A DNA stretch of 64,000 bases from Bacteroidales bacterium (GTDB lineage: Bacteria > Bacteroidota > Bacteroidia > Bacteroidales > P3): NCBI GenBank assembly GCA_017633985.1, contig JAGBOF010000033.1, forward strand, positions 3,774-67,773, in the 5' to 3' direction. A program made the translations under genes and the position numbers. Position 1 is the stretch's first letter. Each line of letters begins with the position of its first letter. Below the pieces are notes generated by a model that did no database searches, was not told the DNA's origin, and saw only the letters and a program-made list of their open reading frames with translations. Positions 611-57,877 of this stretch are shown one piece after another.

Positions 611-712
611 AATATTACGGCGTTTTAGTAAAATATTACGCCGTTTTATTTTATTAATCAGCGATAAAAATTTATTAATCACGCAGAATAATTTACTGAA
701 ACGGCGTTTTGT
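611..712. repeat. 21-nt phased GC-core/AT-linker array (5 units)
   Basis: Cores ACGGCG, ACGCCG, CAGCGAT, CACGCAG and ACGGCG are centred near 619.5, 640.5, 662, 683 and 703.5. Linkers are of the type AATATT / ATTAAT / AATAATTT. The array lies between convergent genes and overlaps the stop of the 693-2291 gene. Confidence 0.75.
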
Positions 713-2291
713 TTTTATCTGCAATCTGATTGAAACAGAAAAAGGACATAAGCGTGCTTACAAAACACATACCGTCATAACGTTCCAAGCAACTTTCGGC
801 AAACATCCAGCATAAGGCGGTAATGAAAAATACGGTAAAATAAGGATTGTTGCCCAAATGTAACCTGAACATAGGATACAGCAAAAAAATCAACAATACC
901 GCAAGACCTATAAGCCCGAAATTGGCGGTAGTGTATAAGAATTGGTTATGCGGGTCATTAATCGGCATTTGTATTTCGGGATGTGAAATCTTCAAATATC
1001 TGTCCATGCAATCCTTTGCAGCTCCCGTTCCCGTTCCTTTGACAGGTCGGTCTTTTATAACTTTGAGCGTGTTTTCCGTCCATACGATACGTTGTATCAA
1101 GGACATGTTTTCTACTTCTTTTGTTCTGAAATACCGCTCAAACTCATAAAACGTTTGGTATAATCTCGGTTTTAAAGAAAATTTATCGGTATAAACGATG
1201 TTGGAACAGCCCTGTTTGATGTTTTCAATATCCTTTTGGGTTAAAGAATTTACGCCTTGGGCGTCTTTTTTCAGCCCCTTGGAATTAAGATAACGGTAAA
1301 TAATGTCGTAATAATGATAATGTACGTTGCCTTCTTTGCCTATGCAATAATCGGTTATATCCAAACCTGTTCTGTTTTTCCATGCGGCATTGACTTCTTC
1401 GGGGCAGCAATATTTGTTTACGTAATTGCCGTTTTCAATGAATCTGTCATAAGTTTTGCGGTAATCATTCCCGTTAGATGTTTTGCTTACCGACATTACG
1501 GCAAAGTCTTCTTTCGGAACGAAATAGTTGCAATACTGTCTGTAAAACCAATATCCCGCCGACAAACAACCTGCCAATACCATAATGGAGATGATACAGG
1601 CATATTTGCTGCGCAGTCTGAACAACAATATAAAGGAAGACAATACTGCCAAAACCGTTACGGTGATTACTCCGCTGGCTAAAGATGCAATAAAGATATA
1701 GGAAAGAAACAGAACCGTAATCGGGATGAAATATTTTGCCATTCTGCGGTTTTTGTATGACAGAATAATCATTGCAGCTGATGCAAAAGACAGATGGAAT
1801 GCAAAAGAAATATGCCTTGCAAACGGTATCAGTACTCTGCTTTCCGTATACGGATGGATTATATAATTAATGAATCCGTAGATAATGCCGAAGGTCAGCA
1901 TAAGGAGATAAAACGCAAAAGCAATGTAATATACGTTTCTTTTTAACGGCGATATGACGGCAATAAACAGCGGTATTATCAAAAGCGGCAACTTATGGTT
2001 TAATTCCGTAAGACCTTTGGGTAAATTATCCGTCCATATCAACCCTATGATATTAAGTATATATAAGCCGATAAGGCATATCAACAGGATTTTGTTTTGT
2101 TTTATCGTTGTCAGTTTGTCTTTTATGCTGCCGATAAACAATATCCGTATAACAATGGCAACAAGTGCCAAAGTAAAGATGAACGTTGAATAAAGCACAC
2201 CTCCTATAAGCAGGACGAAACAAAATAAAGTATAATAATCCGACAGGGACAACCCGTCAAATGCCTTTTTTATGTTTTCTTTTCCTTGCAT
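693..2291 (-). CDS. O-antigen ligase (Wzy_C/WaaL-like) family polytopic membrane protein
   Basis: 532 aa with many hydrophobic helices. A Wzy_C-like signature (NDPHNQFLYTTANFGLIGLAVLL) lies near the C-terminus, and a large soluble loop sits between the TM blocks. The gene is adjacent to lpxD. Confidence 0.6.
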   Translation of the reverse strand: MQGKENIKKAFDGLSLSDYYTLFCFVLLIGGVLYSTFIFTLALVAIVIRILFIGSIKDKLTTIKQNKILLICLIGLYILNIIGLIWTDNLPKGLTELNHKLPLLIIPLFIAVISPLKRNVYYIAFAFYLLMLTFGIIYGFINYIIHPYTESRVLIPFARHISFAFHLSFASAAMIILSYKNRRMAKYFIPITVLFLSYIFIASLASGVITVTVLAVLSSFILLFRLRSKYACIISIMVLAGCLSAGYWFYRQYCNYFVPKEDFAVMSVSKTSNGNDYRKTYDRFIENGNYVNKYCCPEEVNAAWKNRTGLDITDYCIGKEGNVHYHYYDIIYRYLNSKGLKKDAQGVNSLTQKDIENIKQGCSNIVYTDKFSLKPRLYQTFYEFERYFRTKEVENMSLIQRIVWTENTLKVIKDRPVKGTGTGAAKDCMDRYLKISHPEIQMPINDPHNQFLYTTANFGLIGLAVLLIFLLYPMFRLHLGNNPYFTVFFITALCWMFAESCLERYDGMCFVSTLMSFFCFNQIADKNKTPFQ

Positions 2292-2319
2292 TATGCTGTC
2301 AGTGTAACAAAACCGTGTT

Positions 2320-3351
2320 TCAGTTTGATGTGTCTGTCAGTTTATTTTCCAATTCCCGTAAACGTTTTTCCATTTCGGGCAGTTTTTTGAACAAAGCGTA
2401 AGCTCTCATGTATTCGGTAGGGTTAATGGCAGGGGAGCCGAACAATCTGCTGTTGTCTTTTACATTGCTCATAACACCGCTTTGCGCACCTATTTGTACG
2501 TTGTCGCCTATTTTTATGTGACCTGCAAATCCTACCTGTCCGCCTATGAAACAGTTGTTGCCTATTTGTGTGCTTCCCGCCAAACCTGTCTGGGCTGACA
2601 TGACGGTATTGCTGCCCACGGTTACGTTATGGGCAATCTGACAGAGGTTATCTATTTTCGCTCCTTTGTGAATTACGGTCGAACCCATGGTTGAGCGGTC
2701 TATGCAGGCATTTGCCCCTATTTCCGCATCGTCTTCTATGATTACGTTGCCCGTTTGCGGAATCTTTTTAAACGTTCCGTCACTCAAAGGGGCGAATCCG
2801 AATCCGTCAGCACCTATTACTACACCCGAATGAATGATGCAATTGTTTCCTATAACTACATCGTGATAAATTTTTGCACCTGCGTAAATGGTTACGTTGT
2901 TTCCTATTTTTACCCCTTCGCCTATATAAACCTGCGGATATATTCTGCAATTGGTTCCGATAACCGCATCTTTGTCAATAACGGCATATTCACCCAAATA
3001 ACAATCTTCGCCAACCTTTGCACTGTCATTGACAAATGCCAAAGAGGATATGCCTTTGCGGTTAAAGCGGTATTGGTTGTATAGCTCCAACAGCGAAGCA
3101 AAAGCACTGTATGCGTCTTTTACTTTTATAAGTGTGGCGTTAATAGGCTTTTCCAATACGAAATCTTCATTGACAATTACTGCCGAAGCTTCCGTTGAAT
3201 ATATATATTGAGCGTATTTAGGATTTGCCAAAAATGACAGTCCGCCCGGTTCTCCTTCTTCTATTTTGCAAACTTTGTTTACCGTAACCTCACTATTACC
3301 TTCCGTAGTTCCTTGCAGAAAGTCCGCTATTTGTTTTGCCGAGAGTTCCAT
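2320..3351 (-). CDS. lpxD: UDP-3-O-acylglucosamine N-acyltransferase
   Basis: 343 aa. It has an LpxD N-terminal domain followed by left-handed beta-helix hexapeptide repeats (IG.N..I....VIG type) and a C-terminal helix. Confidence 0.9.
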
Positions 3352-3373
3352 TTATTAATTCAGTTAGATAAAA

Positions 3374-5415: not shown

Positions 5416-5465
5416 TAATTTTCACTTACTTACAAAGATGCGGTGCTACTGTGTCAAACCGCTGA

Positions 5466-5552
5466 AATAATACGCCGTAAAAATTTATTAATCAGCCTGA
5501 ATAATTTATTAAAACGCCGTATTAATATTTTTTTACGCCGTCTTATTTTTTC
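5466..5552. repeat. 21-nt phased GC-core/AT-linker array (4 units)
   Basis: Cores ACGCCG, CAGCCTG, ACGCCG and ACGCCGTC are separated by AAAAATTTATTAAT / AATAATTTATTAAA linkers. The array ends in CGCCGTCTTATTTT. Confidence 0.75.
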
Positions 5553-5556: not shown

Positions 5557-6570
5557 CTAATATTTGATTTTATCCTGCGTGTTATTCCACTGCTCAAACG
5601 GATCTCTGCCCAATTCTTTTAAGAATTGTTCGCTTTTTATCGCCCTGTCTTTTTTATCAAGTGCTATTTCCTTATATATATATGTATCGTCAAAACCTCC
5701 GAAAGCGGCGTCGTTTTGTCCTGCTGCGTAATAAATCCTGTCAAGACGTGCCCAATAAATTGCACTCAAGCACATAGGGCACGGTTCGCAAGAAGTGTAT
5801 ATCTCGCATCCCGAAAGATTGAAATCATTCAACTGTTTGCAGGCGTTTCTTATGGCATTGACTTCTGCATGTGCCGTAGGATCGTTGGTTGAGGTGACGG
5901 TATTGGTGCCTTGGGCTATGATTTTTCCGTCCTTTACTATGATGGCTCCGAAAGGTCCGCCTTTTTTGCTTGCGATATTCGCTTTTGCAAGTCCTATTGC
6001 CGATTGCAGAAAGATTGTCCGCTCAATTATTTCAGGGAAATAGGTTTTTTCCAAGATATGTATGCTTTTTGCCAAATCCTCGGGAGTGTCCGTCGGCTTT
6101 ATATCGCATTTTGCCTGAAAGATTATATCACCCGAATCGTATTTCTCATTGACGTAATGGATTGTTATGCCGCTTTGTTTTTCTTTTGCTGCAATTACCG
6201 CTTCGTGTACGTGATGTCCGTACATTCCTTTGCCTCCGTATGAAGGCAATAGGGCAGGGTGGATGTTTATTATCTTGTGATCGTAATTTTTCAATAGGTT
6301 TTCAGGCACCAACCAAAGGAATCCCGCAAGTATTATGTAATCTATACCCCGTTGTTTCATCAAATCAAGCACCTTGTCGCTATTGTAAAAATCATTTCTG
6401 TTGAAATAAAAGCAGTCAATGCCCAGATTCTTGGCTCTTTCAATGACGTAAATGTTTTGTTTATTGACCACAACGCAATCGACGGTTATTCCGTCTCGGT
6501 TAAGAAAGTATTCGCTGATTTGTTGTACGTTAGTACCGTTGCCTGAAGCAAATAAAGCAAGTTTTTTCAT
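5557..6570 (-). CDS. purN: Fusion protein: phosphoribosylglycinamide formyltransferase (PurN) plus CDA-fold guanine deaminase (GuaD-like)
   Basis: Residues 1 to about 190 are PurN-like (SGNGTN, NIHPALLPSYGG, GITIHYV). Residues from about 195 to 337 match the B. subtilis-type guanine deaminase (GGPFGAIIVKDG, DPTAHAEVNAIR, YTSCEPCPMCLSAIYWA, FDD.YIYKEI). It is one uninterrupted ORF. Confidence 0.85.
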   Translation of the reverse strand: MKKLALFASGNGTNVQQISEYFLNRDGITVDCVVVNKQNIYVIERAKNLGIDCFYFNRNDFYNSDKVLDLMKQRGIDYIILAGFLWLVPENLLKNYDHKIINIHPALLPSYGGKGMYGHHVHEAVIAAKEKQSGITIHYVNEKYDSGDIIFQAKCDIKPTDTPEDLAKSIHILEKTYFPEIIERTIFLQSAIGLAKANIASKKGGPFGAIIVKDGKIIAQGTNTVTSTNDPTAHAEVNAIRNACKQLNDFNLSGCEIYTSCEPCPMCLSAIYWARLDRIYYAAGQNDAAFGGFDDTYIYKEIALDKKDRAIKSEQFLKELGRDPFEQWNNTQDKIKY

Positions 6571-9660: not shown

Positions 9661-9763
9661 CTGTTTTTTATTGTAATGTTAAAGTTTTTGAGACAAATAT
9701 TAGGCTGTCACAATATTTTTATATGCGTTACAAACATGTATTACTGTATTCTATAAATTAAGA

Positions 9764-9885
9764 TGCCGTCCCGCAAAATTAATCAGCGATAAGAAAAAAT
9801 TATTCTGCGTGATTAGTAAAATAATCTGCGAGAATAATTTTTTCTTCTCGCAGATTATTTTCGTAAAGCGGCGTCTTATTTCCGC
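9764..9885. repeat. 21-nt phased GC-core/AT-linker array (6 units) 3' of LRR gene A
   Basis: Cores GCCGTCCCGC, CAGCGAT, CTGCGTG, CTGCGAG, CTCGCAG and GCGGCGTC. The last five are spaced 22, 21, 21 and 21 nt apart. The interior is nearly identical to 14524-14632. Confidence 0.8.
9820..9859 (-). terminator. Perfect 15-bp hairpin inside the array (likely terminator of LRR gene A)
   Basis: AATAATCTGCGAGAA (9820-9834) pairs with TTCTCGCAGATTATT (9845-9859) around a 10-nt T-rich loop. It lies about 45 nt after the stop codon. Confidence 0.6.
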
Positions 9886-9901: not shown

Positions 9902-12900
9902 TTATTCAATTATCAGCGGCTGCGTGAATTTTCCTACGTTGATATAGTATACTCCCGTCTCAAAATCGCTAACATTGATATCTTTAACGCCTTTAATGTT
10001 CTTGATTTCTCTAACAATCTGGCCTTTGTTATCAATTATCTTAATATCACCGTCGGCATGAATAGTTACTCTGTCTTTTGCAGGATTCGGATAAATACTT
10101 ATTATCTTTTCTTGTGTAATTTCCTCAATACCTGCAGTGACTTGTAGGTATAAAGTAACAATACTGTCGCATCCGTCATCGGTTTGAAGATTTAAGGTAT
10201 ATTCACCCGCATCTGATTCGGTAAATCCGTAACCATTGTAGGTTTCACCTGCATTTATTTCTGCATAAATATACGTCCTCGTCACCCCGCACGGTGTTAT
10301 GGTATCATGAAGATAAACAGTATCTATTGTATTAACGGTATCGTACAATGTTAAGGTGATAGTGTCTGTTAATGTGACAGTGTCTGTCTGCGTTAATGTG
10401 ATTGTGTCGGTTAATGTGACGGTATCGTATAGTGTTAAGGTGATAGTGTCGGTTGTATTGATAGTATCGTATAGCGTTAAGGTGATTGTATCAGTTAAAG
10501 TAACTGTATCGGTCTGTATCAAGGTGATTGTGTCAATTGTATTGATTGTATCGTATAGTGTTAAAACTATTGTGTCAGTTGTATTGATAGTATCATACAA
10601 TGTTAAAGTAACAGTGTCGGTCGTGTTGATAGTATCGTATAATGTTAAGGTGATAGTGTCAGTTAAAGTTACGGTATCTGTTTTAAGTGTTGTAAGGTTT
10701 AATCTAATAATGCTGTCGCAACCGTTAATTGTCTGAAGGTTTTGAATGTAATTGCCTTCGGATTGCTGGGTAAAACCGTTTAATGTATATGTATCCCCAC
10801 TTTGGATAATGCTTTCAATAAGCGTATCGTATGAAGGATTGACTGTCAGATTCAAAGTAACGATGCTGTCGCATTCATACTTGTTTAACAGATTTGCAAC
10901 ATATTCACCCGATTGTGTAAGCGTCTGTCCGTTAAATTCGAATCCGTCTCCCTGACATATACTTTTGTTAACAACGGTGTATTCCGTGTCACCCAAACGG
11001 TGTAATACCTCCGTGGAATACGTCCAGGTATTGTAATAACTGTCGAAACTGCCGCAAGGGACCCATATCCAGTCAGTCCCGCCTCTGTAGAACCTGTCAT
11101 AGCCTACAAAAGGAGCAGTCAAAGGGTAAGCATATACGGTATCAATGTAACAATCCTTAAACAAACGTTGAGGTAAACTTGTTACGTTCTCGTCAATTGT
11201 TAAGGTTTTGATATTATTACATTGATTGAATACTCCGTTAGGGTCACCGTAAGTATGCATAATGCTTGTGCAAGACGGAGAATTATAATTAATGATTTGT
11301 AAACTGTCACAGTTGGAAAATGCGCCTTCTTCCAATGTGTCCACCTTGTTGCTTACAGTTACTTCCTTAATATTTGTTCCCGAAAAAGCAAACACTCCGA
11401 TTCTTCTTACGTTGTCAGGCAGAGTTATATCTGCTTTTTTATTGTTTCTTAAGAAATAATGCGGGATGTATTCAACATCATTGCTGATTGTTACGTTTGT
11501 TAACGCCGTGTCATTGTCAAACATACCCAATCCTTCAAAGCAAGCATTATAATCAACATATACAGGATTATATTCAACTGCCGTAAGGTTAGGACAATAA
11601 GCAAAAGCTGCGCAACCGATAGAGGTTACCGTCTCGGGAATTGTCACCTCACTGATAGCAGTGGATGCAAAAGCATATTTACCTATTGAAGTGACATTGT
11701 CAGGCAGCGGTGCCGAAATAAGGTTGCCGCAATTGTTAAATGCATAATCGCCTATTTTCTTCAAAGAATTAGGAAAAGTCAATGAGGTTATCCCCTTTTC
11801 ATTGCTAAGTAAATAATTAGGTATTGTTTCTACATTACTGCCAATAACAAAGTTTTGAATTTTTCCATTCCTTGCAAGACCGTTAGAATAATCGGACGTA
11901 TATACTGCATTCTTTGCATTATAATATACAAACTCTAATGAATCACAACCTAACAGCGGAGTAATACCTATACTGTCAATCCCTTCAGGAATAGTAAATG
12001 TTTTCAATCTATTACAGTTTGCAAACAAATACCACGGGATAACTTCAACGTCATTTCCTATTGTTGCTGTTTCCACGTTAGTCCAATTGACAGAATGATT
12101 GTATATGTCTCCTAAACTATTACAATGCTTGGCATTCCAATGAACGGTTTTTAAACTTGTAGTATTTCCGAAGGCATTATTGCCCATATAAGTTAGACCT
12201 GCAGGAATGGTTATTTCACTGACAGATACTACTCCTTCAAAAGCACCGTTATCTATTGTCTGTAAACTGTCAGGAAAAGTAATTGACGTAATTCGGTTAC
12301 AACCGCTGAATGCATATGCTCCGATACTCCTTAAGGAAGCAGGGAAATTTACCTGTGTTATCTTCGGGCAACCGGCAAACAGATTGTTAGGTAATTTTTG
12401 AACTTCATTTCCTATAATAACCTTATCCAAATTACCTGCAACAACTTTTGACTTATAAAAATCATTTGCTCTGTCAGATGGATGAATTGTATGATAATCT
12501 ATACTAATTGCATTATAATACATAGTCTTCAAACTATCACACCCGGTAAAGATTTCCCAACCTAAATAAGTTACAGTCTTCGGAATTGTTATTTCTTTAA
12601 GTTTAGTACAACCATAAAAAGCGTTATTGCATAGAGAATCAAGACCTTCCTGTACAATACAAGTTTCCAGACTTGAAGAAAGATAAAATGCATGGTCTCC
12701 GATGTATTTTAATGAAGAAGACAGAGTAAGAGATGTTAAATTATCACTTCTGAAGAATGCCCATGGACTTATGTATTTTACGGTGGACGGAAGTGTAAGC
12801 GTATAGTCTTGGGTTGCCATTCCCCTCGCATGAACGATTAAGGTGTCTTTTGCTTTATTATACAAACACCTGTTTTCCATAACATAGTTAGTGTTACCCT

Positions 12901-13261
12901 CTTCCAATGTTATTTCAAAAGCTCCGTGAAAAGCACCGCATTCAATATATTTAACGGTATTAGGAATTGTAATATTTGTCCTGCCTGTTACACTACCGTA
13001 ATATCCGATTTGATATCCGATACTCGTGACGGTATATTCGTCGCCGTTGTAAGTAACTTTCGATGGTATAACAATGTTAGTACTGTTACCTGTGATACTT
13101 GTCATTTTTACTTCAAAGTTAGGATAAACATTAGAAGTAATTTGATAATACAATCCGCCTGAACTGAAATAACTGCCTACGGTTTGTGCATTAGTTTGCA
13201 CACATGTCAATCCTAAACAATAAAGGATTGCAACTAATAAAACTTTTTTCAATTTTGCCAT
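9902..13261 (-). CDS. BspA-type leucine-rich-repeat (LRR_5) surface protein with a T9SS C-terminal sorting domain (LRR gene A)
   Basis: 1119 aa. The signal peptide is MAKLKKVLLVAILYCLGLTCVQTNAQ. It has more than 20 LRR_5-like units (IP..V..IG..AF..C..L..I), Cys-bracketed GCDS modules and a Thr-rich DT(V/I)TL repeat tract. The Por-type CTD reads IYPNPAKDRVTI ... GVYYINVGKFTQPLIIE. Confidence 0.85.
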   Translation of the reverse strand: MAKLKKVLLVAILYCLGLTCVQTNAQTVGSYFSSGGLYYQITSNVYPNFEVKMTSITGNSTNIVIPSKVTYNGDEYTVTSIGYQIGYYGSVTGRTNITIPNTVKYIECGAFHGAFEITLEEGNTNYVMENRCLYNKAKDTLIVHARGMATQDYTLTLPSTVKYISPWAFFRSDNLTSLTLSSSLKYIGDHAFYLSSSLETCIVQEGLDSLCNNAFYGCTKLKEITIPKTVTYLGWEIFTGCDSLKTMYYNAISIDYHTIHPSDRANDFYKSKVVAGNLDKVIIGNEVQKLPNNLFAGCPKITQVNFPASLRSIGAYAFSGCNRITSITFPDSLQTIDNGAFEGVVSVSEITIPAGLTYMGNNAFGNTTSLKTVHWNAKHCNSLGDIYNHSVNWTNVETATIGNDVEVIPWYLFANCNRLKTFTIPEGIDSIGITPLLGCDSLEFVYYNAKNAVYTSDYSNGLARNGKIQNFVIGSNVETIPNYLLSNEKGITSLTFPNSLKKIGDYAFNNCGNLISAPLPDNVTSIGKYAFASTAISEVTIPETVTSIGCAAFAYCPNLTAVEYNPVYVDYNACFEGLGMFDNDTALTNVTISNDVEYIPHYFLRNNKKADITLPDNVRRIGVFAFSGTNIKEVTVSNKVDTLEEGAFSNCDSLQIINYNSPSCTSIMHTYGDPNGVFNQCNNIKTLTIDENVTSLPQRLFKDCYIDTVYAYPLTAPFVGYDRFYRGGTDWIWVPCGSFDSYYNTWTYSTEVLHRLGDTEYTVVNKSICQGDGFEFNGQTLTQSGEYVANLLNKYECDSIVTLNLTVNPSYDTLIESIIQSGDTYTLNGFTQQSEGNYIQNLQTINGCDSIIRLNLTTLKTDTVTLTDTITLTLYDTINTTDTVTLTLYDTINTTDTIVLTLYDTINTIDTITLIQTDTVTLTDTITLTLYDTINTTDTITLTLYDTVTLTDTITLTQTDTVTLTDTITLTLYDTVNTIDTVYLHDTITPCGVTRTYIYAEINAGETYNGYGFTESDAGEYTLNLQTDDGCDSIVTLYLQVTAGIEEITQEKIISIYPNPAKDRVTIHADGDIKIIDNKGQIVREIKNIKGVKDINVSDFETGVYYINVGKFTQPLIIE
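10300..10690 (-). repeat. In-frame Thr-rich periodic repeat tract (TDT[VI]TL / TLYDTINT units)
   Basis: The protein reads LKTDTVTLTDTITLTLYDTINTTDTVTLTLYDTINT ... DTVYLHDTITPCG. The plus-strand shadow ORF reads VSVNVTVSV. Confidence 0.85.
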
Positions 13262-14523: not shown

Positions 14524-14632
14524 AATAAGACGCCGTCCCGCGAAATTAATCAGCGATAAGAAAAAATTAATCTGCGTGATTAATAAAATAATCTGCGAGA
14601 ATAATTTTTTCTTCTCGCAGATTATTTTCAGA
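14524..14632. repeat. 21-nt phased GC-core/AT-linker array 3' of LRR gene B
   Basis: AAGACGCCGTCCCGCG, CAGCGAT, CTGCGTG, CTGCGAG, CTCGCAG. It is near-identical to 9764-9860. Confidence 0.8.
14587..14626 (-). terminator. Perfect 15-bp hairpin inside the array (likely terminator of LRR gene B)
   Basis: AATAATCTGCGAGAA (14587-14601) pairs with TTCTCGCAGATTATT (14612-14626). Confidence 0.6.
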
Positions 14633-14647: not shown

Positions 14648-17600
14648 TTATTCAATTATCAATGGTTGCGTGAATTTACCTACTTTTATGTAGTAAATTC
14701 CCGCCTTGAAATCCTTAATATTGATATCAAGTTGTTGAGATTGTATGTCGGATTTATAGACAACTTGTCCCGCATTGTTAATAATAGTTATTACCTTATC
14801 ACCATCCAATATCAAATGTCCGATATCCAATGTAACTTTGTCTTTTGCAGGATTCGGATAAATATTCAGTGAAACGGTTTCCGTAATGCCGTCTATTCCG
14901 CTGTCGTGCTTATAGTGGATTGTCGTAGTTACTATACTGTCGCAACCGAATTGGGATTGAAGCGTATCAATAATTACTTCGTCGTATTCATCCATGGTTG
15001 CATCTTCAAGTATACGCGTTTCTTCTGCACTGACGCTGTATGTCTGATGAGCGGTAAGCGTCAATACGATTATGCTGTCCTTATCCATGTTTACGTGAAC
15101 GGTGTCTTTGTATTCTCCCGCAACGCTTAATTCCCGTCCGTTAAAGTTATAGGTTTCTCCCTCGCATATTGATGCCTCGATATTTACCGTAACGATTTCT
15201 TTATTGCAACCTGTTTCGGTATAATTGGCGAACATGTTCCACCAAGCTGCGGATTTGTAAGTATTCATTGCACCGCACGGAACAAAGACAGGTATGGTGT
15301 TCAAAACTTCTTCGAATGTGGAGCTGTAGATTGTCGGCGGCACTTCTGCGTAAGATACGATCGTGTCCATGTTTTCACAAAATGCAAACGCCTTTTTGTC
15401 AATCTTGGCAACGCCTGTGCCTAATTCCAGATATGAAAGGTTGCCGCAATTGCTGAATGCGTATGTTCCGATGTTTTTTACGCTATTAGGAAGTATTATT
15501 TTGTTGATTTTATGAAATTTGGATATGAACTTACTGTCTTGGTCAGGATTGTAAGGGTTATAGTTTAAGGTTCTGCCTTGAAGAAGTTTGGCGGGGATGT
15601 TTTCAACCTTATCTCCGAAAATAAATGCGGATATATTGGTGTCACCGTCAAACATAGGATAAACTTCATCTTCGTAGTCTTCATCGTAAATATACGAAGC
15701 ATTAATGGCGTTCCATCTGACTGTATCCAGCGATGTGCAATCTGCGAATGCCTGTTCGCCTATCTTTTCCACATTTTCAGGAATAGTGACAGTCTTTAAG
15801 TTCTTACATCCGCGGAACACATTGGAACCAATAGATTTCAGACTGTTCGGCAAAATTATACTGTCAGTTAGAAAATTACGGAATAAGCCCTCGTCAAGTT
15901 TTTCGACATTGCTGCCGATATTTACCTTTGTTATGGTCGGATTTGTCGAGAACACGTAAGAACCGCATGAAGCATTGACGGCATTATAGTTCAATGTGTC
16001 AAGGTTTGTACATTCTGGAAAAACATAACGTTCTATTGTATCTACATTTTCAGGGATTGTGACGGAAGTTAGACCTATGCAATTAGCAAAAGCATTTTCT
16101 CCTATAAATGTAACCGATGACGGAATTTCTATTTTCGTTATCTTCTTAAATCTATTGTCAGCTATCGTGTCGAAAATATATTCTTGTGTTTGGTAATCGA
16201 AGTTTGCCATAATATCCATAGGTCCGTATAATATCGCTTGAGGAATTCTTTTTACTCCGTCTGCAAATATAAATGAAGATATATTGACGGATTCGGAGAA
16301 TGGACTTTCAGAATAATCGTGTGTGCAATTAACTGCATTAAAATTAACGGTTGTTAAACTTTTGTTGTCTGAAAATGCATGTACTCCGATACTTTCAACG
16401 GCGGCAGGAATAGTTAAATCAGTAATGCCAAGCCCCGTCAAAGACAAATCGCCTATTGTTTTAACGCTTTCAGGCAGTGATAATGATTTTATTTTGTTAA
16501 AATCCAAGGTGTCAGTGTATAAATAATCACCCTTATCATCTGCAATGTTTTTCAATTCCTGCTTGAAAAGTTTATCAGGAATAACTTCTACATTTTCTCC
16601 GAAGTTAATTTCAGAGATATTTGTATCAGCGTAGAACATAGAGTGATTTTGTGAATAATATGAAGCCTTATAGTAACAATTCTTCGCATTGAAATTAACT
16701 TTTGTCAGAGACGGAAGATCGGCAAAAGCTTCTGTGCCGATGGTATCAACTGTTGATGGGATAGTTATCTCTGTCAAGCCCGTGTTCATAAATGCCGAAT
16801 CTCCTATAATCCGTACTCCGTCAGGAATAGTAACGGAAGAAAGATTTATCTGATTCAATAAAAACTTATCGGGAATAGCTTCCACACTGTCCCCTATGTT
16901 TACAGTTGTAATGTTGAAGCTTCCAAAAATATGTTTTTTGCTTAATTGGAAATCGTAGGAGTCATAATATATACGGGAGGTTATGTCATATAAGCCATTT
17001 AATTCATTTTGCCAAGCGTTTCTCTTTTGAAATACAAATGCAGCAGCTTTAGCATTATAGTTCAAGGTTTTTAATTGTTTTATTCCGTGAAAACAATCTA
17101 ATCCGAATTCTTTTACTGACGCAGGAATGGTAATTGTGTTAATTTTAGGGAATCTGCATACAATACTGTCATAATAAGTGTATGAGAAGTCCCATATCCG
17201 AATTGTATCTTCGTCTAAAAATCCGTTGGGGATAACTTCCACATGGTTTCCTATATTAACCGTAGATATATTGGTATCTCTGTCAAACATGCTTCCCACT
17301 ATATCATACTCACTTTTATATACCGTAGCGTTATAAGCACGTATTGCATTATAATTTACGGTTTGCAGTTTTGTACATAAAGCAAACGCTTTGTTACCTA
17401 CAACCTTTACATTTTCAGGAATTGTAATTGTAGTTAGATTGTAGCAGTTGTAGAATGAGGAATCTCCTATTACCTGCATGGAATTAGGGAAAACTACTGA
17501 TTGAATGCCTAATCCGGGAAATGCTCCGTTGTCTACGGCATTTACCGTGAATGTTTTGTTGCCGTGACTGACGGATGACGGTATATTAACATTCGAAAGA

Positions 17601-39100: not shown

Positions 39101-39155
39101 ACGGGAAGGCGTGTCGTTTTTTTAGATTGGTATATTGATTGAATAAAAAGCAAAA

Positions 39156-39183: not shown

Positions 39184-39206
39184 AAGAAAAATAGACAAGA
39201 AAATTA

Positions 39207-41630
39207 TTATTTCTTATATTGTTTTACTATGTTTTCCATAGTGTCGTCTATTCTCATCTTATAGAACGAGCGCCATACGAAAACAACAGCTGTAAGCACG
39301 AAGATGATTCCGAAATACGGAGCCATATCTCTGAAACTTTCGCTTATAGCCATTTCCATAGCCAACAGACCGAACAAAGTCGTGAATTTGATGATAGGGT
39401 TCAATGATACGGAAGAAGTATCTTTGAAAGGATCTCCCACAGTGTCTCCCACAACCGATGCATCATGCAAATCAGTGCCTTTTAATGCCAAATCAACTTC
39501 GACAACCTTCTTGCTGTTGTCCCAGCTTCCGCCTGCGTTAGCCATAAACACTGCCTGGAACAATCCGAACATTGCTATGGAAATCAGATATGATACAAAC
39601 AAGCTCACTGCATTGCTTCCGCCGATACCCGCAGGTGAAGCCAAGCATGCAAATCCCAATGCAAAGAAGAAAATAGCCAAGAAGATGTTCCACATTCCCT
39701 TTTGTGCGTATTGTGTACATATTTTAACGACTTCAACGCTTGATTTAGGATCCGCTTTTTTAGGAGCGTTAGGGTCAAGTTTGATATGGTCTTTGATAAA
39801 TGCCACTGCACGGTTGGCACCTACGGTAACAGCCTGTGTGGATGCACCCGTAAACCAATAGATAACACATCCGCCTAAAATAAATCCTAATATTGTGTAA
39901 GGGTTAAGAAGGTTTAGTATCTCTGCAGGATTAACTCCCAAAACGTTTTGGATAACCAAGATGATGGAGAATATCATTGTCGTTGCACCAACGACAGCCG
40001 TGCCGATAAGAACAGGTTTTGCGGTTGCCTTGAATGTGTTGCCCGCTCCGTCATTCTGTTCCAAATAATATTTACTCTTTTCCCAATCAGGTTTAAAGCC
40101 GAATTCTTTTTCTATTTCTTCGTCTTTGTTCGGTTCGTCTTCTATCAAAGATAATTCATATACGCTTTGGGCGTTGTCAGTTACAGGTCCGTAAGAGTCA
40201 ACAGCTATTGTGACTGGTCCCATTCCCAACATACCGAAAGCAACCAATCCGAAAGCAAAGATAGCAGGGTAGGACATCATTTCTCCGCAGATGTTTACGC
40301 TCAATACGTATGATAAGAACATAAGGATTACGAAAACCAATCCCGTCCAAAAGCCCGAGAAATTACCCGTAACGAATCCCGAAAGAATATTCAGCGATGC
40401 GCCGCCGTGATGTGATGCTTTTACAACCTCCTGAACGTGTCCGCTGTGCGGTGAAGTGAATACTTTTGTGATTTCCGGGATAACTGCAGCACCTATTGTG
40501 CCTAATGAAATAATGCAAGCCAACAAACACCACAATCCGTTACCCAAATGTCCCAATTGGAAATAAGATACGATAAACGTAACTGCGATACTCAATATAG
40601 AAGCAATCCATATAAGGTTTGTAAGAGGTTTTTCAAAATCAAGATCTTCCGTTTTGCTGTATTTTGCTTTAGATATACCGTTATTAATCCAGAATGCGAC
40701 AACGGAAGTAATCACCATAAGAATACGCATTGAGAATATCCATACAAGCAAATCCCTTTGTATCATCGGGTCTTTCACTGCCAATAATATAAATGATACC
40801 AAAGCAACACCCGTTACGCCGTAAGTTTCAAATCCGTCAGCCGTCGGTCCTATTGAATCTCCTGCATTATCTCCCGTACAATCTGCAATAACTCCCGGAT
40901 TACGCGGATCATCCTCTCCAATCTTGAATACTACTTTCATAAGATCGGAACCTATGTCGGCAATCTTTGTAAATATACCGCCTGCTATACGTAATGCAGA
41001 TGCTCCTAAACTCTCTCCTATAGCAAAACCTATGAAACAGCTGCCTGCTAAATGTGTCGGCATGCACAAAAGAATGATTAACATCAAAAATAGTTCTACG
41101 CAAACCAACATAACGCCTATTGACATTCCTGCATTCAACGGTATGTTCAACAGTTTAAGCGGTTGTTTTCTCAAAGATGCGAAAGCCATTCTTGCATTTG
41201 CGAAAGTGTTCATACGGATTCCGTAAGCGGCAACACCGTATGAGCCCAAGATTCCCACAACTGTCCAAAACAAAATAAGCAATACGCCTCCTATACCTGC
41301 ATTGTTTTCTGCCAATACGCCAAAGTATATAGCTACAATCACGCCTATAAATATAAACAATGTAGCAAGGAACTTACCTTGTTGTTTCAAATAAGTGGAA
41401 CAGGTTTTGTAAATAACCTCACCTATTTCCAGCATCTTCTTGTGAACGGGAAGCTTTTTTGTTTTAATAAAGTGGTACATACCGAACAGAAATCCGAGTA
41501 CCGTAACTAAAAATCCCCAATGCAAAAAACTAAATTCGTGGATGGCATCAGGGATTACTAAATCTGCTTCGCTTGCAAATAATGCACTTGCAGGGGCGAG
41601 CGATAACAGTAATGTGATAATTTTTTTCAT
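39207..41630 (-). CDS. hppA: Membrane-bound cation-translocating pyrophosphatase
   Basis: About 807 aa counted from MKKIITLL and polytopic. It has diagnostic motifs GGIFTKIADIGSDL, DCTGDNAGD, NTFKATAKP and GDTVGDPFKD. Confidence 0.95.
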   Translation of the reverse strand: MKKIITLLLSLAPASALFASEADLVIPDAIHEFSFLHWGFLVTVLGFLFGMYHFIKTKKLPVHKKMLEIGEVIYKTCSTYLKQQGKFLATLFIFIGVIVAIYFGVLAENNAGIGGVLLILFWTVVGILGSYGVAAYGIRMNTFANARMAFASLRKQPLKLLNIPLNAGMSIGVMLVCVELFLMLIILLCMPTHLAGSCFIGFAIGESLGASALRIAGGIFTKIADIGSDLMKVVFKIGEDDPRNPGVIADCTGDNAGDSIGPTADGFETYGVTGVALVSFILLAVKDPMIQRDLLVWIFSMRILMVITSVVAFWINNGISKAKYSKTEDLDFEKPLTNLIWIASILSIAVTFIVSYFQLGHLGNGLWCLLACIISLGTIGAAVIPEITKVFTSPHSGHVQEVVKASHHGGASLNILSGFVTGNFSGFWTGLVFVILMFLSYVLSVNICGEMMSYPAIFAFGLVAFGMLGMGPVTIAVDSYGPVTDNAQSVYELSLIEDEPNKDEEIEKEFGFKPDWEKSKYYLEQNDGAGNTFKATAKPVLIGTAVVGATTMIFSIILVIQNVLGVNPAEILNLLNPYTILGFILGGCVIYWFTGASTQAVTVGANRAVAFIKDHIKLDPNAPKKADPKSSVEVVKICTQYAQKGMWNIFLAIFFFALGFACLASPAGIGGSNAVSLFVSYLISIAMFGLFQAVFMANAGGSWDNSKKVVEVDLALKGTDLHDASVVGDTVGDPFKDTSSVSLNPIIKFTTLFGLLAMEMAISESFRDMAPYFGIIFVLTAVVFVWRSFYKMRIDDTMENIVKQYKK

Positions 41631-41719
41631 TGTTTTATGTTTATTTATTATTATTTTCAGTATCAGTAACAAAATGTGAATTCAGTACAGAGGTTAAACA
41701 GATGTAGTAAATTCAACTG

Positions 41720-44511: not shown

Positions 44512-44523
44512 TTGATTTTTCGT

Positions 44524-44612
44524 GGCGCCGTTTTACGAAAATAATCAGCGAGATTAATAAAATAATCAGCGAGATTAATTTTTTAATCTCGCTGATTATT
44601 TTAGCGTTTTGT
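44524..44612. repeat. 21-nt phased array containing a perfect 18-bp hairpin
   Basis: AATAATCAGCGAGATTAA occurs as a direct copy (44540-44557). It occurs again at 44561-44578, where it pairs with TTAATCTCGCTGATTATT (44583-44600). The cores are 21 nt apart. Confidence 0.8.
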
Positions 44613-48947: not shown

Positions 48948-49133
48948 CGACATCTTTTTGACATTGAAAAATTAATCTGCGGTTAAAAATTGCTTCAAAT
49001 GCGGAATAACAGTCCCTTTTGGCGTTTGGGCTTAATGAAATAAATTAATCAATGTCCATTTTAATCCGTTTTTACGGCAAATTTTTGTGCAGTTTTTGCT
49101 TTTTGAAAGACCGCTGAAATGTCCCGCTAAAAA

Positions 49134-49218
49134 AAGACGGCGTTTTAAAAAATTAATCAGCCTGATTAATAAAATAAAACGCCGTATTAATAAATTTTTA
49201 AGCCTGATTATTTCGGCA
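49134..49218. repeat. 21-nt phased GC-core/AT-linker array
   Basis: Cores GACGGCG, CAGCCTG, ACGCCGT and AAGCCTG are centred near 49139, 49161, 49182 and 49203.5. ACGGCGTTTT pairs with AAAACGCCGT as an outer inverted repeat. Confidence 0.75.
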
Positions 49219-51061: not shown

Positions 51062-51757
51062 ATGAAAAAGAACGTAGTAGTATTGACGGGAGCGGGCATT
51101 TCGGCAGAAAGCGGCATAAAGACATTCAGGGATTCCGACGGTTTATGGGAAAACTACCGCATAGAAGATGTCGCCAATTATGATTCGTTTGAAAAAGACA
51201 GCGAATTGGTAACGAAATTCTACAACGCGCGCCGACGCCAGCTGACAACAACCCTGCCAAATGAGGGTCATAAACAATTAGTCCGCCTTGAAGACAAATT
51301 CAATGTAACTGTCATTACACAGAATGTGGACGATCTGCACGAAAGAGCGGGAAGCAAAAAAATAATACACCTTCACGGAGAACTGACAAAGGCATGCAGC
51401 GTCAGCGATAAGAGTGAAATTTACGATGTAGGCTACCATGACATAACGCCTATGGATGTTGATAAAAACGGAGAGATGTTACGGCCTTTTATCGTGTGGT
51501 TCGGAGAATCCGTTCCTATGCTTGAACCCGCTGTTGAAGCGGTTCAGAAGGCGGATATACTTATTATAATAGGTACAAGCTTGGTTGTATATCCTGCAGC
51601 GGGCTTGATACACTATGCACCCAAGGATTGCAAAAAATATCTTGTCGATCCCAAACGTCCTGATGCAGATTTAAGTGGAATAACCTTTATCGAGCAGAAA
51701 GCGTCAGTCGGTGTAAAACAAGTAGTTGATCAGATTTTAGAAGAGAATAATAATTGA
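51062..51757 (+). CDS. cobB: NAD-dependent protein deacylase (Sir2/CobB family)
   Basis: 231 aa with GAGISAESGI.TFR, QNVDDLHERAG and HG motifs. I did not identify a zinc-ribbon Cys motif, although the length fits short Sir2 homologs. Confidence 0.88.
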   Translation: MKKNVVVLTGAGISAESGIKTFRDSDGLWENYRIEDVANYDSFEKDSELVTKFYNARRRQLTTTLPNEGHKQLVRLEDKFNVTVITQNVDDLHERAGSKKIIHLHGELTKACSVSDKSEIYDVGYHDITPMDVDKNGEMLRPFIVWFGESVPMLEPAVEAVQKADILIIIGTSLVVYPAAGLIHYAPKDCKKYLVDPKRPDADLSGITFIEQKASVGVKQVVDQILEENNN

Positions 51758-51765
51758 TAAAATTT

Positions 51766-51845
51766 TTAAGGCTTATTGTGAAATTAAAACGGCGTTTAAA
51801 AAAATTAAAACAGCGTTTTATTTTACTGAAAAGGCGTTTTAATTT
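51766..51845. repeat. 21-nt phased GC-core/AT-linker array (degenerate)
   Basis: AAGGCTT, AACGGCGTTT, AACAGCGTTTTA and AAGGCGTTTTA cores are separated by AAAAAATTAAA / TTTTACTGAA linkers. Confidence 0.6.
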
Positions 51846-51875
51846 TCCAAATTTGGAGTGCATGTTTTTATTTCG

Positions 51876-51893: not shown

Positions 51894-53204
51894 ATGCGGA
51901 TGAAAAACGTTTATATAGAGACTTACGGCTGTCAGATGAATCAAGCCGACAGCGGTATAGTGGGTAAAGTGCTTGTTGAAAACGGTTATTCGCTTGTCAA
52001 TAACCAGGATGATGCCGATGTGATACTTATCAATACCTGTGCGGTAAGGGATAATGCTGAAAAGAGAATACACAACCGTGTCCACGATTTGCAAAGTCTT
52101 AAAAAGAAAAATCCTTTGCTTAAGATAGGAATTATAGGTTGTATGGCAGAGAGATTGAAAGACAGTTTGATTAACGAAGATAAGGCGGAGATAGTTTGCG
52201 GACCAGATTCTTACAGACGTATCCATGAATTGATAGACCTTAACGGCGGCATAGATACCGAACTTTCCAAAGAGGAAACTTATGAGGATATTATTCCCGT
52301 TGAATTGAACAGTGACGGGATTTCTGCATTTATTTCGGTTATGCGCGGATGCGAAAACTTCTGCACTTATTGCGTTGTGCCTTATACCCGCGGTAAGGAG
52401 CGTTCCCGTTCGCCCGAAAGCGTAATTGCTCAAGCAAAGAAATTGTTTGACGAAGGTTACAGGGATATTACTTTGCTCGGTCAGAACGTTAATTCCTATA
52501 TTTATAACGAAGACGGAAAAGATGTGCGTTTTGCGGAGCTGTTAATAAGGGTCGCAAAGATTAATCCTTTGTTGCGCGTGCGTTTTGCGACATCCCATCC
52601 CAAGGATTTGAGTGAGGAATTGGTTGATGCGGTTGCTTCATATAATAATATATGTAAATACATCCATCTTCCCGTACAATCTGGCAGTGATGCAATGCTT
52701 GCAAAGATGAACAGGAAGTATACTTCGGAGCAATATTTACAAAAAATAGATTTGATAAGAAAAAAAATCCCCGACTGTGCGATAAGTACCGACGTTATAG
52801 CGGGATTTTGCGGTGAAACATTGGAGGATCATAACAGGACGCTGGAAATTTTCCGTAAAGTCAGATATGATTCGGCTTATATGTTTAAATATTCCGACCG
52901 TCCCGGTACTGTTGCCCATAAAAGGTTTGAAGACGACATTGAAGAAAAGGAAAAAGTACGCAGACTGCAGGAGATAATAGATTTGCAGAGAGAACTTTCC
53001 CTTGAAAGTAATCAAAAGGATATAGGTAAGATATTTGAGGTTTTGGTTGAGGGAGAAAGTAAAAGAGATAAGACGAAATATTTCGGAAGAACATCTCAAA
53101 ATAAGGTCGTAATATTTGATAAACAGGATAATAAGAAAGGGGATTATATTAATGTTATCATAGAAAATTGTACTTCTGCGACACTTTTCGGGAAAAAAAT
53201 ATGA
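51894..53204 (+). CDS. miaB: tRNA-2-methylthio-N6-dimethylallyladenosine synthase
   Basis: It has the UPF0004 domain YIETYGCQMN, the radical-SAM motif CENFCTYC and a C-terminal TRAM domain. Confidence 0.92.
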   Translation: MRMKNVYIETYGCQMNQADSGIVGKVLVENGYSLVNNQDDADVILINTCAVRDNAEKRIHNRVHDLQSLKKKNPLLKIGIIGCMAERLKDSLINEDKAEIVCGPDSYRRIHELIDLNGGIDTELSKEETYEDIIPVELNSDGISAFISVMRGCENFCTYCVVPYTRGKERSRSPESVIAQAKKLFDEGYRDITLLGQNVNSYIYNEDGKDVRFAELLIRVAKINPLLRVRFATSHPKDLSEELVDAVASYNNICKYIHLPVQSGSDAMLAKMNRKYTSEQYLQKIDLIRKKIPDCAISTDVIAGFCGETLEDHNRTLEIFRKVRYDSAYMFKYSDRPGTVAHKRFEDDIEEKEKVRRLQEIIDLQRELSLESNQKDIGKIFEVLVEGESKRDKTKYFGRTSQNKVVIFDKQDNKKGDYINVIIENCTSATLFGKKI

Positions 53205-56738: not shown

Positions 56739-56751
56739 AAGCGGATAACCG

Positions 56752-57774
56752 TTGAAAGCAAAAGGAAAGAGGCATTATAATATTCCTGTATTTATACCGC
56801 AGAAAGCCTGTCCCCATCAGTGCATATACTGCAACCAAAGGTATATAAGCGGACAAAATAATGCACCTTCACTGCAAGAAGTAAAACAAACAATAGAATT
56901 ATATTTATCAACTGCTGAAAAAGGCTCACTTATACAAGTGGCTTTTTTCGGCGGTACTTTTACAGGGCTTGATATTGACAGCCAAATCGGTTATCTCCAA
57001 GCCGTAAAACCGTATATAGAGGCAGGCAAAATACAATCCGTGCGTCTGTCTACACGTCCCGATTACATCAATACCCAAATCCTTGATTTGTTAAAGCAAT
57101 ATAATGTAACGGATATCGAATTGGGAGCCCAAAGTCTTGATGACAGAGTTTTACAAGTATCAGAACGCGGACACACGCGTGAGGATATTATAAAGGCATC
57201 TAATATGATTAAATCCTACGGGTTCAATCTCGGTTTGCAAATGATGATTGGCTTACCCGAAGATACATTGGACAAAAGTATTGCAACAGCCCGTACGATA
57301 GTGTCCCTCGGAGCTTCGTCCACACGTATATATCCTACATTGGTTATAGGCCGTACGCCATTGGAAAGACTTTACCGCCAAGGGATATATGAACCTCTGA
57401 CAATAGACGATGCAGTTATTTGGTCAAAGGAGATTTATAAAATATTTACTGCGGCTGATATTACTGTCTTACGCGTAGGCCTTCACCCGTCGGAGAGTCT
57501 TATCAGCGGCGGAGGTTATATTGCGGGGCCGTTTCATGTATCTTTTTTCGAGTTGGTGCTGACGGCTTTGTGGAAAGAAAGGTTTGAGGATTTTTTACGC
57601 AGCCGTGATTTGGCAATACGTGATATAAAGACAATAACCGTTAATCCTAAAGATGTAAATTATGCCGTCGGTTATAATTCTTCTAATTTACGGTGGTTAA
57701 AGCAAGCAAATCCTAACATAAAGATCATACAAAATTCATCTGTTGCACCCGATAATTTTATTATTTGGCAGTAA
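56752..57774 (+). CDS. ELP3-like radical SAM protein (COG1243-type, no GNAT domain)
   Basis: It has the N-terminal IPVFIPQKACPHQCIYCNQ (CxxxCxxC) motif and an Elp3/TIM-barrel-like body. It needs a TTG start at 56752 because no nearby in-frame ATG exists. Confidence 0.7.
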   Translation: MKAKGKRHYNIPVFIPQKACPHQCIYCNQRYISGQNNAPSLQEVKQTIELYLSTAEKGSLIQVAFFGGTFTGLDIDSQIGYLQAVKPYIEAGKIQSVRLSTRPDYINTQILDLLKQYNVTDIELGAQSLDDRVLQVSERGHTREDIIKASNMIKSYGFNLGLQMMIGLPEDTLDKSIATARTIVSLGASSTRIYPTLVIGRTPLERLYRQGIYEPLTIDDAVIWSKEIYKIFTAADITVLRVGLHPSESLISGGGYIAGPFHVSFFELVLTALWKERFEDFLRSRDLAIRDIKTITVNPKDVNYAVGYNSSNLRWLKQANPNIKIIQNSSVAPDNFIIWQ

Positions 57775-57794
57775 TTTTTCCGTGCATGAATTTT

Positions 57795-57877
57795 GCGTCA
57801 AAATAATCAGGCGTTTCAGTAAAATAAAACGCCTGATTAATTTTTTAAAACGCCGTTTTAATATTTTTTTACGGCTT
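57795..57877. repeat. 21-nt phased array containing a 12-bp hairpin
   Basis: Cores GCGTC, CAGGCG, ACGCCTG, ACGCCG and ACGGC; the last four are spaced about 21 nt apart (the first gap is about 13.5 nt). AATCAGGCGTTT pairs with AAACGCCTGATT as a stem (about 57803-57840). Confidence 0.75.

Follow-up and report, generated by a model that had tools for sequence, protein, structure and literature searches.

The DNA described here is a 64-kb stretch (contig JAGBOF010000033.1 of a Bacteroidales bacterium; its full length of 64,000 nucleotides is referred to as the window), part of a 69-kb scaffold (ENA ERZ28655255, XIEF21-1_SAMN15830096 scaffold_513) that comes from the gastrointestinal metagenome of a ruminant. 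The window has a G+C content of ~38-39%, its gene content according to Pfam annotation consists of ordinary housekeeping genes and of genes for proteins with a Por_Secre_tail (type IX secretion) sorting domain, and the Bacteroidetes TAnnTTTG -7 box is present in its intergenic regions. The nearest named GltX sequences belong to entries labeled "MAG: Bacteroidales bacterium" (MAG, metagenome-assembled genome), with at most 94% identity. Exact copies of the window's proteins were located in ENA and Logan assemblies alone, and in neither NCBI nor JGI. Dispersed between the genes are twelve short arrays, each built of 4-6 modules arranged head to tail in a two-helical-turn register over 85-125 bp, which occupy ~2% of the window at a density of ~1 per 5 kb and form the subject of this study (Table 1). 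A sequence-only reading had reported G+C cores embedded in an A/T background at twelve loci, all of which were recovered by inspection of the sequence, and it had estimated that about half of the intergenic spacers carry an array, which comes to 43% (12 of 28) when intergenic regions measuring 40 nt or more are counted.

The phasing of the arrays is strict. When 52 units were placed by their core centers, the 40 successive spacings measured 21 nt in 31 cases, 22 nt in six, 20 nt in two and 19 nt in one, in agreement with the 20.5-22 nt that had been counted by hand, and Tandem Repeats Finder independently called period 21 at ten starts (609, 650, 5468, 14543, 23207, 26018, 34518, 44538, 49128, and 57825). 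A single-unit profile hidden Markov model (HMM; nhmmer) was too weak, with all E-values >1, and composition combined with phase chaining was used instead, a site being defined as a 7-nt window with at least four G/C, flanked on each side by 6 nt with at most one G/C (6+6 nt). This composition-only detector found nine phased chains of at least three sites 20-22 nt apart, as compared to a mean of 0.07 and a maximum of two in 200 dinucleotide-preserving shuffles of the intergenic regions, and 34 site pairs 20-22 nt apart, as compared to 6.4 +/- 1.5 in the shuffles. The autocorrelation of G+C over all intergenic DNA, which had been proposed as a check, has its peak at lags 21 and 22 (z = 10.1 and 8.4, respectively) and a harmonic at lag 42-43 (z = 4.6-4.7), and hence exceeds that of shuffled DNA at 21 nt. 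The observation is real and statistically robust.

The building block was shown to be a 21-bp module, composed of a 15-bp dyad motif and ~6 bp of A/T linker. Aligned on their cores, the units give the dyad-symmetric consensus TAAwmmGSCkkwTTA, and the position matrix carries its information at T-7, A-6, and A-5, at G-1, S0, and C+1, and at T+5, T+6, and A+7, while positions -3/-2 are A or C and positions +2/+3 are G or T. Of the strict motif TAA-N3-GSC-N3-TTA the window contains 14 occurrences, as compared to 0.7 expected, a 20-fold enrichment, and 12 of these 14 lie within arrays. Typical units are TAAAACG-S-CGTTTTA and TAATCAG-S-CTGATTA, next to which hybrid units composed of two unlike half-sites exist, such as AAAACG-C-CTGATTA, as well as the non-palindromic cores CACGCAG, CAGCGAG, and CTGCGAG, which occur in either orientation. 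That cores appear in both orientations and are shuffled among loci had been noticed before and was confirmed for ACGGCGT/ACGCCGT, CAGCCTG/CAGGCTG, CACGCAG/CTGCGTG, CAGCGAG/CTCGCTG, and CTGCGAG/CTCGCAG, as well as for hybrids such as ACGCCTG. A strict odd-palindrome detector recovered only one of the 12 arrays, hence some units are poor palindromes. The dyad symmetry of the module, together with the inverted end modules, the long hairpins and the bias toward the 3' side of genes described below, are features beyond those of the sequence-only reading, as are a variant 13th array and an array-like coding stretch (Table 1).

The majority of arrays terminate on either side in inverted end modules of the form GAAAATAAG-ACGSCGT ... 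ACGSCGT-CTTATTTTC (in full, yGAAAATAAG-ACGSCGT ... ACGSCGT-CTTATTTTCr), which makes the element an imperfect long palindrome. Alignment of the 24 array ends, the right ends being reverse-complemented, yields a common yGAAAATAAK-core-TTyARWAAATTAAT that fits the right ends better than the left ends, and the arrays have a polarity, with an A-rich start and a core-CTTATTTTC finish. The potential hairpin is AT-rich and roughly 25-50 bp long, with the GC cores of opposite arms paired. By virtue of the shared inverted ends, 10 of the 12 arrays are predicted to fold into such long hairpins, far better than shuffled sequences as RNA (z -2.6 to -9.0) and likewise with DNA energy parameters, the strongest RNA fold being that of array 9760-9884. 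Of the 257 core bases that are paired in the minimum-energy structures, 216 have their partner in another core, in a nested manner (first with last, second with penultimate), and an odd number of units leaves a palindromic unit at the hairpin tip. Where cores pair with each other, their central S bases are complementary in six pairs but not in three, which is not significant, and therefore this test does not separate a hairpin model from a binding-site model.

With respect to the genes, 11 of the 12 arrays are located 3' of one gene or more, eight are found within 4-28 nt of a stop codon, and wherever an array sits between co-directional genes (seven spacers), its distance from the upstream stop is smaller than that from the downstream start. 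Two poorly folding arrays stop short of a -7 box: 23194-23281 ends 21 nt upstream of that of gltX, and 51762-51848 ends 28 nt upstream of that of a MiaB-like gene. The closeness to stop codons at the eight loci, the A-rich left and T-rich right ends and the fact that parts of five arrays pass a simple stem-plus-T-run test would fit ordinary bidirectional intrinsic terminators, which evolved in place in AT-rich spacers and do not constitute a repeat family. A scan with a terminator consensus gave a number of sites similar to that in shuffles, and among the arrays it picked out only the one at 44520. Termination has no use for a 21-nt phase. Six window sites (20325-20356 and 37447-37481, both bidirectional, 39155-39184, 34437-34472, 34638-34665, and 24985-25013) carry canonical terminators with a GC stem and a T-run, hence the organism uses ordinary intrinsic terminators beside the arrays; the arrays at 34508 and 39021 adjoin such terminators, whereas those at 23194 and 51762 stand at promoters and do not fold. 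Exact words of 18-25 nt and end modules that unrelated loci have in common already contradict this explanation, which is considered highly improbable.

These shared words are among the observations that point to a family. The exact 18-mer TAATCACGCAGAATAATT is present in four of 13 arrays at unrelated loci, and the 25-nt two-unit pattern TTAATC-N5-GAATAATTTATTAA is found nine times in the window with at most two mismatches, as compared to zero expected. When independent assemblies of the same species were mapped, 7 of 17 contig ends fell within arrays or at most 40 nt from them, despite the small part of the window that arrays make up, and the same-species contigs L002, L003, L029, L031, L032, and L035 start or stop inside the arrays at 609, 9760, 25997, 34500, and 57795 (L-numbers designate contigs fetched for comparison, from the same species or from relatives as indicated). 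Breaks of this kind are the usual behavior of multi-copy sequence in short-read assembly. The arrays are also not confined to the window, as two more were found in its flanks, at 15288-15414 of L024 (~2.4 kb to the right) and at 17530-17610 of L030 (~4.2 kb to the left). Based on the shared words, the contig breaks and the copies outside the window, the arrays are a repeat family and not a convergent structure.

For comparison with other species, the gltX neighborhoods of eight related lineages with 76-94% GltX identity were examined. The modules of the window species occur in none of the eight, and an HMM of the end module matches the window species alone, apart from one weak match in the 94% relative. 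Nevertheless, four relatives (L018, L021, L041, and L042; 79-94% GltX identity) carry arrays or hairpins with a 20-22-nt period and cores of their own, namely TTTTCTGAAAAG, GACSGTC, GTGGGAC, ACGACGT, and AAACAAAG. In L018 (94%), hairpins of ~90 nt have clamps AAATAAAGTGSCG...CGSCACTTTATTT, which resemble the end modules of the window, and interiors of TTTTCTGAAAAG palindromes spaced by 21-22 nt, and this relative additionally has 22-nt arrays with the palindromic core GAC-S-GTC. GACSGTC arrays recur in L021 (81%) together with GTGGGAC/GTCCCAC units, L041 (81%) has ACGACGT/ATGACGT units, L042 (79%) has 9.5 copies of TAAAACAAAGAGATAGAATTC, and L023 (85%) has TTTTCTGAAAAG-type palindromes, one of them at the very contig start, with no array called by Tandem Repeats Finder. 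More distant relatives have few or none (L043 and L045, 76%) or degenerate traces only (L044, 76%). Tandem Repeats Finder loci of period 20-23 were found at 13 of 20 loci in the relatives, as compared to 8 of 34 unrelated control loci. Since the arrays are dense, their recurrence at the same gene junctions is not significant by itself, and the sole direct evidence of orthology comes from the SIR2-MiaB junction, where the window array 51762-51848 and an L041 array both begin at the stop codon and align unit for unit, so that this array appears older than the split between the window species and L041. Going by these sequences, the array class is common to a subclade, with a conserved period and species-specific cores.

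An origin as a MITE (miniature inverted-repeat transposable element) would account for part of these observations, if a transposase encoded elsewhere recognized the GAAAATAAG-ACGSCGT ends and the interior were a minisatellite, as in BrickBuilt. The ends are indeed terminal inverted repeats, of which ~16-30 nt are conserved between loci, a length of 85-125 bp is in keeping with a MITE, the arrays exist in multiple copies at which assemblies break, and BrickBuilt offers a precedent within the Bacteroidales (PMC4596501). The interiors, however, are not near-identical as in a MITE but mosaics that differ at every locus, with no single master element, and one good end is wanting in the arrays at 14524 (right), 34508 and 51766 (left). 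On inspection, none of the 12 arrays has a visible target-site duplication beyond its ends, and the SIR2-MiaB array, apparently orthologous at 81% GltX identity, speaks for an old and not a recent insertion. The earlier statement that the window has no transposase and no REP-associated tyrosine transposase (RAYT; REP, repetitive extragenic palindrome) is borne out by Pfam for the gene calls and open reading frames (ORFs) covering the window, except for one ORF that was assigned by synteny, and neither the window nor the 12 kb fetched around it (~76 kb in total) yielded a mobilizing gene. The BrickBuilt unit and its IS5-type ends are likewise absent. A MITE-like origin is hence regarded as quite unlikely.

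The reading favored here, to which an even chance of being correct is given, is that the arrays are a lineage-specific family of modular intergenic repeats similar to REPs and bacterial interspersed mosaic elements (BIMEs), whose function we infer. The shared 18-25-mers, the assembly breaks in arrays, the copies outside the window and the species-specific cores suggest that the modules are copied or homogenized within the genome, and the elements would be tolerated directly after stop codons, where they are presumably least harmful. Proposed roles of REPs and BIMEs include 3' stem-loops, barriers to 3' exonucleases and binding sites for IHF and gyrase. By analogy, the arrays may be co-transcribed as strand-symmetric 3' stem-loops, which would serve as bidirectional terminators or as barriers to 3' exonucleases, and the modules may additionally be read on duplex DNA by a putative dimeric protein bound to one helix face, as BIMEs are by IHF and gyrase. 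Such reading of the duplex is suggested by the 21-22-bp phasing, which persists in non-folding arrays and in relatives with unlike unit sequences.

Several observations weigh against this reading. If the arrays served only as hairpins, their fixed 21-bp spacing would have no explanation, and arrays 23194-23281, 51762-51848, and 17530-17610 of L030 are (the first two essentially) direct repeats that barely fold. The predicted RNA folds have no strand bias toward the sense transcript, the sense-minus-antisense difference being negative in five arrays and zero or positive in five, and arrays and canonical terminators are not complementary in their distribution, as 3 of 14 array-flanked gene ends have a terminator, as compared to 5 of 15 array-free ones. 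Where same-species contigs from the assemblies of other animals span arrays, their sequence is identical, with no polymorphism in presence or copy number, and the missing target-site duplications and mobilizing gene count here as well.

Some of the same points would be accommodated if the arrays were phased, operator-like sites for a dimeric protein (nucleoid-associated or a global regulator) that would bind the 15-bp dyad motif on a single helix face at every second turn, with the hairpins as a by-product of repeating a palindromic site. The rigid two-turn spacing is the chief argument for this view, or for such binding as an added layer. The dyad motif is well defined, strongly enriched and almost confined to arrays; 39 of the 40 spacings fall within 21 +/- 1 despite differing linker sequence; and the non-folding arrays (23194, 51762, and L030 17530) retain both unit and phase. 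The two arrays ending 21-28 nt upstream of a -7 promoter box, the conservation of period but not of sequence among species and the absence of an RNA strand bias point the same way. Yet at least six different cores in one genome would be unusual for one protein, defined inverted ends are superfluous for operator arrays, and non-palindromic cores occur as perfect inverted pairs (CAGCGAG/CTCGCTG with a ~20-bp stem, CTGCGAG/CTCGCAG with 17 bp), while most arrays follow the stops of unrelated housekeeping genes, away from promoters, and no candidate protein was found. This protein-site reading is considered rather unlikely.

The reading as a REP/BIME-like family can be taken one step further. A subclade of rumen Bacteroidales might keep arrays of dyad sites in a 21-22-bp register at many gene boundaries, where cores turn over and period and position persist, implying a co-evolving trans-acting partner; this extension is decidedly tentative and, as it stands, doubtful. 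If it were true, the partner could be a chromosomal protein that binds the arrays, which would amount to a boundary or insulator-like system at gene ends, or alternatively a Bacteroidales counterpart of the REP-RAYT system with a different enzyme. REP-like repeats are well studied in Proteobacteria, and the Bacteroidales are a dominant order of gut and rumen. Given that they are located at gene ends and at two promoters and occur in ~40% of the larger spacers, the arrays probably influence many housekeeping genes, through the 3' ends of transcripts, the stability of mRNA or the local structure of the DNA. In practical terms they are costly as well, since short-read assemblies break in them and MAGs of the clade become fragmented. 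A helical register retained from species to species in spite of the turnover of sequence is an unusual and potentially important signature, and poses the question of what reads or copies the modules.

Table 1. Arrays and array-like features of the window, with module cores, gene context and predicted folding (z relative to shuffled sequence).
Feature	Position	Modules	Context	Predicted fold
Array 1	609-716	5 (ACGGCGT, ACGCCGT, TCAGCGA, CACGCAG, ACGGCGT)	Between convergent genes; last module overlaps 3' end of Wzy_C gene (693-2291, minus), into its last codons	RNA -30.1 kcal/mol, z -4.3; core pairs 0-4 and 1-3
Array 2	5464-5552	4 (ACGCCGT, CAGCCTG, ACGCCGT, ACGCCGT)	4 nt from stop of gene 5557-6570 (minus)	z -3.8
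Array 3	9760-9884	6	17 nt past stop of LRR/Por_Secre_tail gene 9902-13261 (minus)	~50-bp hairpin; RNA -53.6 kcal/mol, z -9.0; DNA z -7.4
Array 4	14524-14630	5, near-identical to array 3	17 nt past stop of paralog 14648-17812 (minus)	z -5.5
Array 5	23194-23281	4 direct repeats (ACGCCTG, ATCGCAG, GTCGCAG, ACGCCTT)	Divergent region; ends 21 nt upstream of gltX -7 box (TATCTTTG)	No fold; RNA z -0.3, DNA z +0.9
Array 6	25997-26083	4 (AAGGCGT, CACGCAG, CACGCAG, ACGGCGT)	Starts 6 nt past stop of endonuclease gene 25091-25990 (plus); contigs L002 and L003 end within	z -2.6
Array 7	34500-34582	4	Between convergent genes, each with its own canonical terminator	CAGCCTG/CAGGCTG perfect 20-bp hairpin; z -7.0
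Array 8	39017-39101	4 (ACGCCGT, ACGGCGT, CACGCAG, ACGCCTG)	105 nt past stop of H+-PPase gene (39207-41672, minus), beyond canonical terminator 39155-39184	z -4.1
Array 9	44520-44604	4 (GGCGCCG, CAGCGAG, CAGCGAG, CTCGCTG), with direct duplicate module	8 and 28 nt from two convergent stops	Perfect ~20-bp hairpin; z -7.6
Array 10	49128-49216	4 (ACGGCGT, CAGCCTG, ACGCCGT, AAGCCTG)		Outer modules paired, palindromic module at tip; z -4.0
Array 11	51762-51848	4, mostly direct (AAGGCTT, ACGGCGT, ACAGCGT, AAGGCGT)	Starts 4 nt past SIR2 stop; ends 28 nt upstream of MiaB-like gene -7 box	Weak; RNA z -1.3, DNA z -2.1
Array 12	57795-57888	4 (CAGGCGT, ACGCCTG, ACGCCGT, ACGGCTT)	Starts 20 nt past stop of radical-SAM gene 56752-57774 (plus); contig L029 ends within	Two adjacent hairpins; z -3.1
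Variant 13th array	19195-19320	Three 22-nt A7-NNN-T7 units between inverted clamps GCCCCGTGCCGTATTATTTTC and GAAAATAATACGGCAAGGGGC; end motif as in 21-nt arrays		DNA -35.6 kcal/mol, z -8.9
Array-like coding stretch	30116-30230	ACGGCGT, ACGGCGT, TCTGCGA at 21-nt spacing, then ATTATTTCGGCG end motif	Within ORF 29436-30377 (minus)	

Arrays 3 and 4 are related by segmental duplication, in which the array was copied as well, since they are near-identical and stand at the same offset behind paralogous genes. These genes belong to a set of paralogous LRR_5/Por_Secre_tail surface-protein genes (9902-13261, 14648-17812, and 62420-63994), which carry coding tandem repeats of 42 and 84 nt (10335-10678 and 62869-63328), and the gene at the right end (62420-63994) has a sample-dependent length of 808 versus 1225 residues (L025 versus L024). 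The variant array has a counterpart in L041 (5700-5830; 81% GltX identity), upstream of a TPR gene. In the array-like coding stretch the reading frame is intact, and the L021 ortholog aligns through it without gaps. The gene downstream of array 8 is a rubredoxin-like small ORF of 52 residues (38680-38840, minus strand), below the 100-residue cutoff of the ORF list. In L018 (13028-13409 and 20040-20300) and L021 (13028-13410), a 22-nt phased GAC-S-GTC array lies inside a larger inverted repeat, which contains two opposed promoter-like boxes and is located upstream of a gene for an HU-like protein (HU-HIG) and of an MFS gene; in the window, SIR2 (51062-51757) is followed by the MiaB-like gene (51894-53204) with no HU-HIG gene in between, and array 11 fills this spacer.

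To the left of the window, ~3.5-4.5 kb from its start, a 1.1-kb non-coding stretch (L030 16800-17860) is crowded with diverse period-21/22 repeats and hairpins and contains a perfect DnaA box, TTATCCACA; L030 and L031, the longest same-species contigs fetched leftward, both terminate in it. The cumulative GC skew of the window has its minimum at ~5-18 kb. On the grounds of the DnaA box, the repeat-dense non-coding stretch and the skew minimum, a replication origin may lie nearby.

The sequence-only reading had stated that the arrays match no described family, and searches of Rfam, GTDB, JGI, plasmid and phage collections and the literature agree, as no known MITE or REP family was hit. Rfam 15 gave no match at the gathering score, and at E <= 0.5 only two spurious matches to plant miRNA precursors, both on the hairpin 19195-19320. 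The pattern TTAATC-N5-GAATAATTTATTAA had 11 single chance matches in unrelated taxa and no array among 185,579 GTDB species representatives, and three chance matches in IMG/VR, while the 19-mer TAATCACGCAGAATAATTT, taken from the commonest unit, had five chance matches and no arrays in JGI metagenomes, and a BLAST search of plasmid and phage collections with two arrays gave no match. For the Bacteroidales, literature searches brought up as comparable elements only BrickBuilt and its relative PgRS of Porphyromonas gingivalis.

The mosaic look that had been likened to BIME/REP is supported, the likeness being one of architecture only. Like the arrays, the REPs and BIMEs of Escherichia coli and other enterobacteria are short imperfect palindromes, multi-copy and intergenic, and mostly located after genes or between convergent genes; they occur in both orientations with few linkers, in mosaic clusters that fold into larger hairpins, and their sequence is species-specific (PMC3733652). 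The arrays are short, multi-copy, extragenic imperfect palindromes as REPs are by definition, but they consist of 15-bp dyad motifs in a rigid 21-bp register instead of 20-40-bp REPs with variable spacing, have AT-rich stems with a 3-7-nt GC core and their own inverted end modules, and reside in a Bacteroidales host rather than a proteobacterium. The GTAG tag of RAYT-associated REPs is missing, with neither GTAG nor CTAC in the 1,313 nt of arrays, as compared to 191 in the whole window. As to BIMEs, the arrangement is analogous, with cores in both orientations and recurring linkers, but the orientation of the array units does not alternate strictly (direct pairs at 23194, 26004, and 44524), and the enterobacterial sequences on which BIMEs are defined are absent from the arrays. 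A second group, the CGTC-tagged REPs, comprises the dRS3 clusters of Neisseria and RPE-4/6 of Rickettsia, has A/T pairs at the stem base and no dedicated transposase, and has been reported in Bacteroidetes, sometimes in large clusters (PMC3733652). Small palindromes and an A/T stem base are common to both, and CGTC/GACG occurs in the outer end modules of 8 of the 12 arrays. Members of this superfamily have an unpaired CGTC tag, an 8-9-bp stem, a 4-5-nt loop and a CCA tail (PMC3733652), whereas in the arrays CGTC/GACG is part of the base-paired end clamp and CGTC is missing from the internal modules, so membership was rejected.

Helically phased operators and iterons, such as tandem ARG boxes with 21 bp from center to center and plasmid iterons of ~22 bp, resemble the arrays in having dyad or direct units every two helical turns. 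They are restricted to one or a few regulatory loci with one sequence, whereas the arrays occupy 12-14 unrelated loci in ~76 kb, mostly after stops, with several cores and inverted ends; iteron and invertible-promoter readings were rejected on this anatomy. A CRISPR array was rejected as well, since the units abut without unique spacers, the cores vary, the 12 loci are dispersed and no cas genes are present, and the near-palindromic promoter motif "PM2" of Bacteroides thetaiotaomicron is unrelated to the arrays (PMC7366714).

BrickBuilt of P. gingivalis is a MITE with an internal 23-nt minisatellite (unit AGAYCATARTATCCTCTCRTRTG) that forms long stem-loops, has up to 22.8 unit copies per element and is present in only 19 elements per genome, while PgRS/MITE464 consists of 41-nt repeats (PMC4596501). 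Both share with the arrays a Bacteroidales host, a strictly intergenic location and a tendency to cause assembly gaps, and some copies have promoter activity (PMC4596501). The arrays differ from BrickBuilt by being short (4-6 units) and far denser, with mosaic cores. Identity with BrickBuilt was rejected, as its unit has no match in the window at up to three mismatches and its leader and tail segments are absent; its IS5-like ends, GAGACCTTTGCA, gave one chance-level match in the window, inside a gene. BrickBuilt is the closest described element found in the same order, and the arrays could be assigned to none of the named families against which they were tested. They are best read as an undescribed REP/BIME-like family; related species have same-period arrays with other cores.

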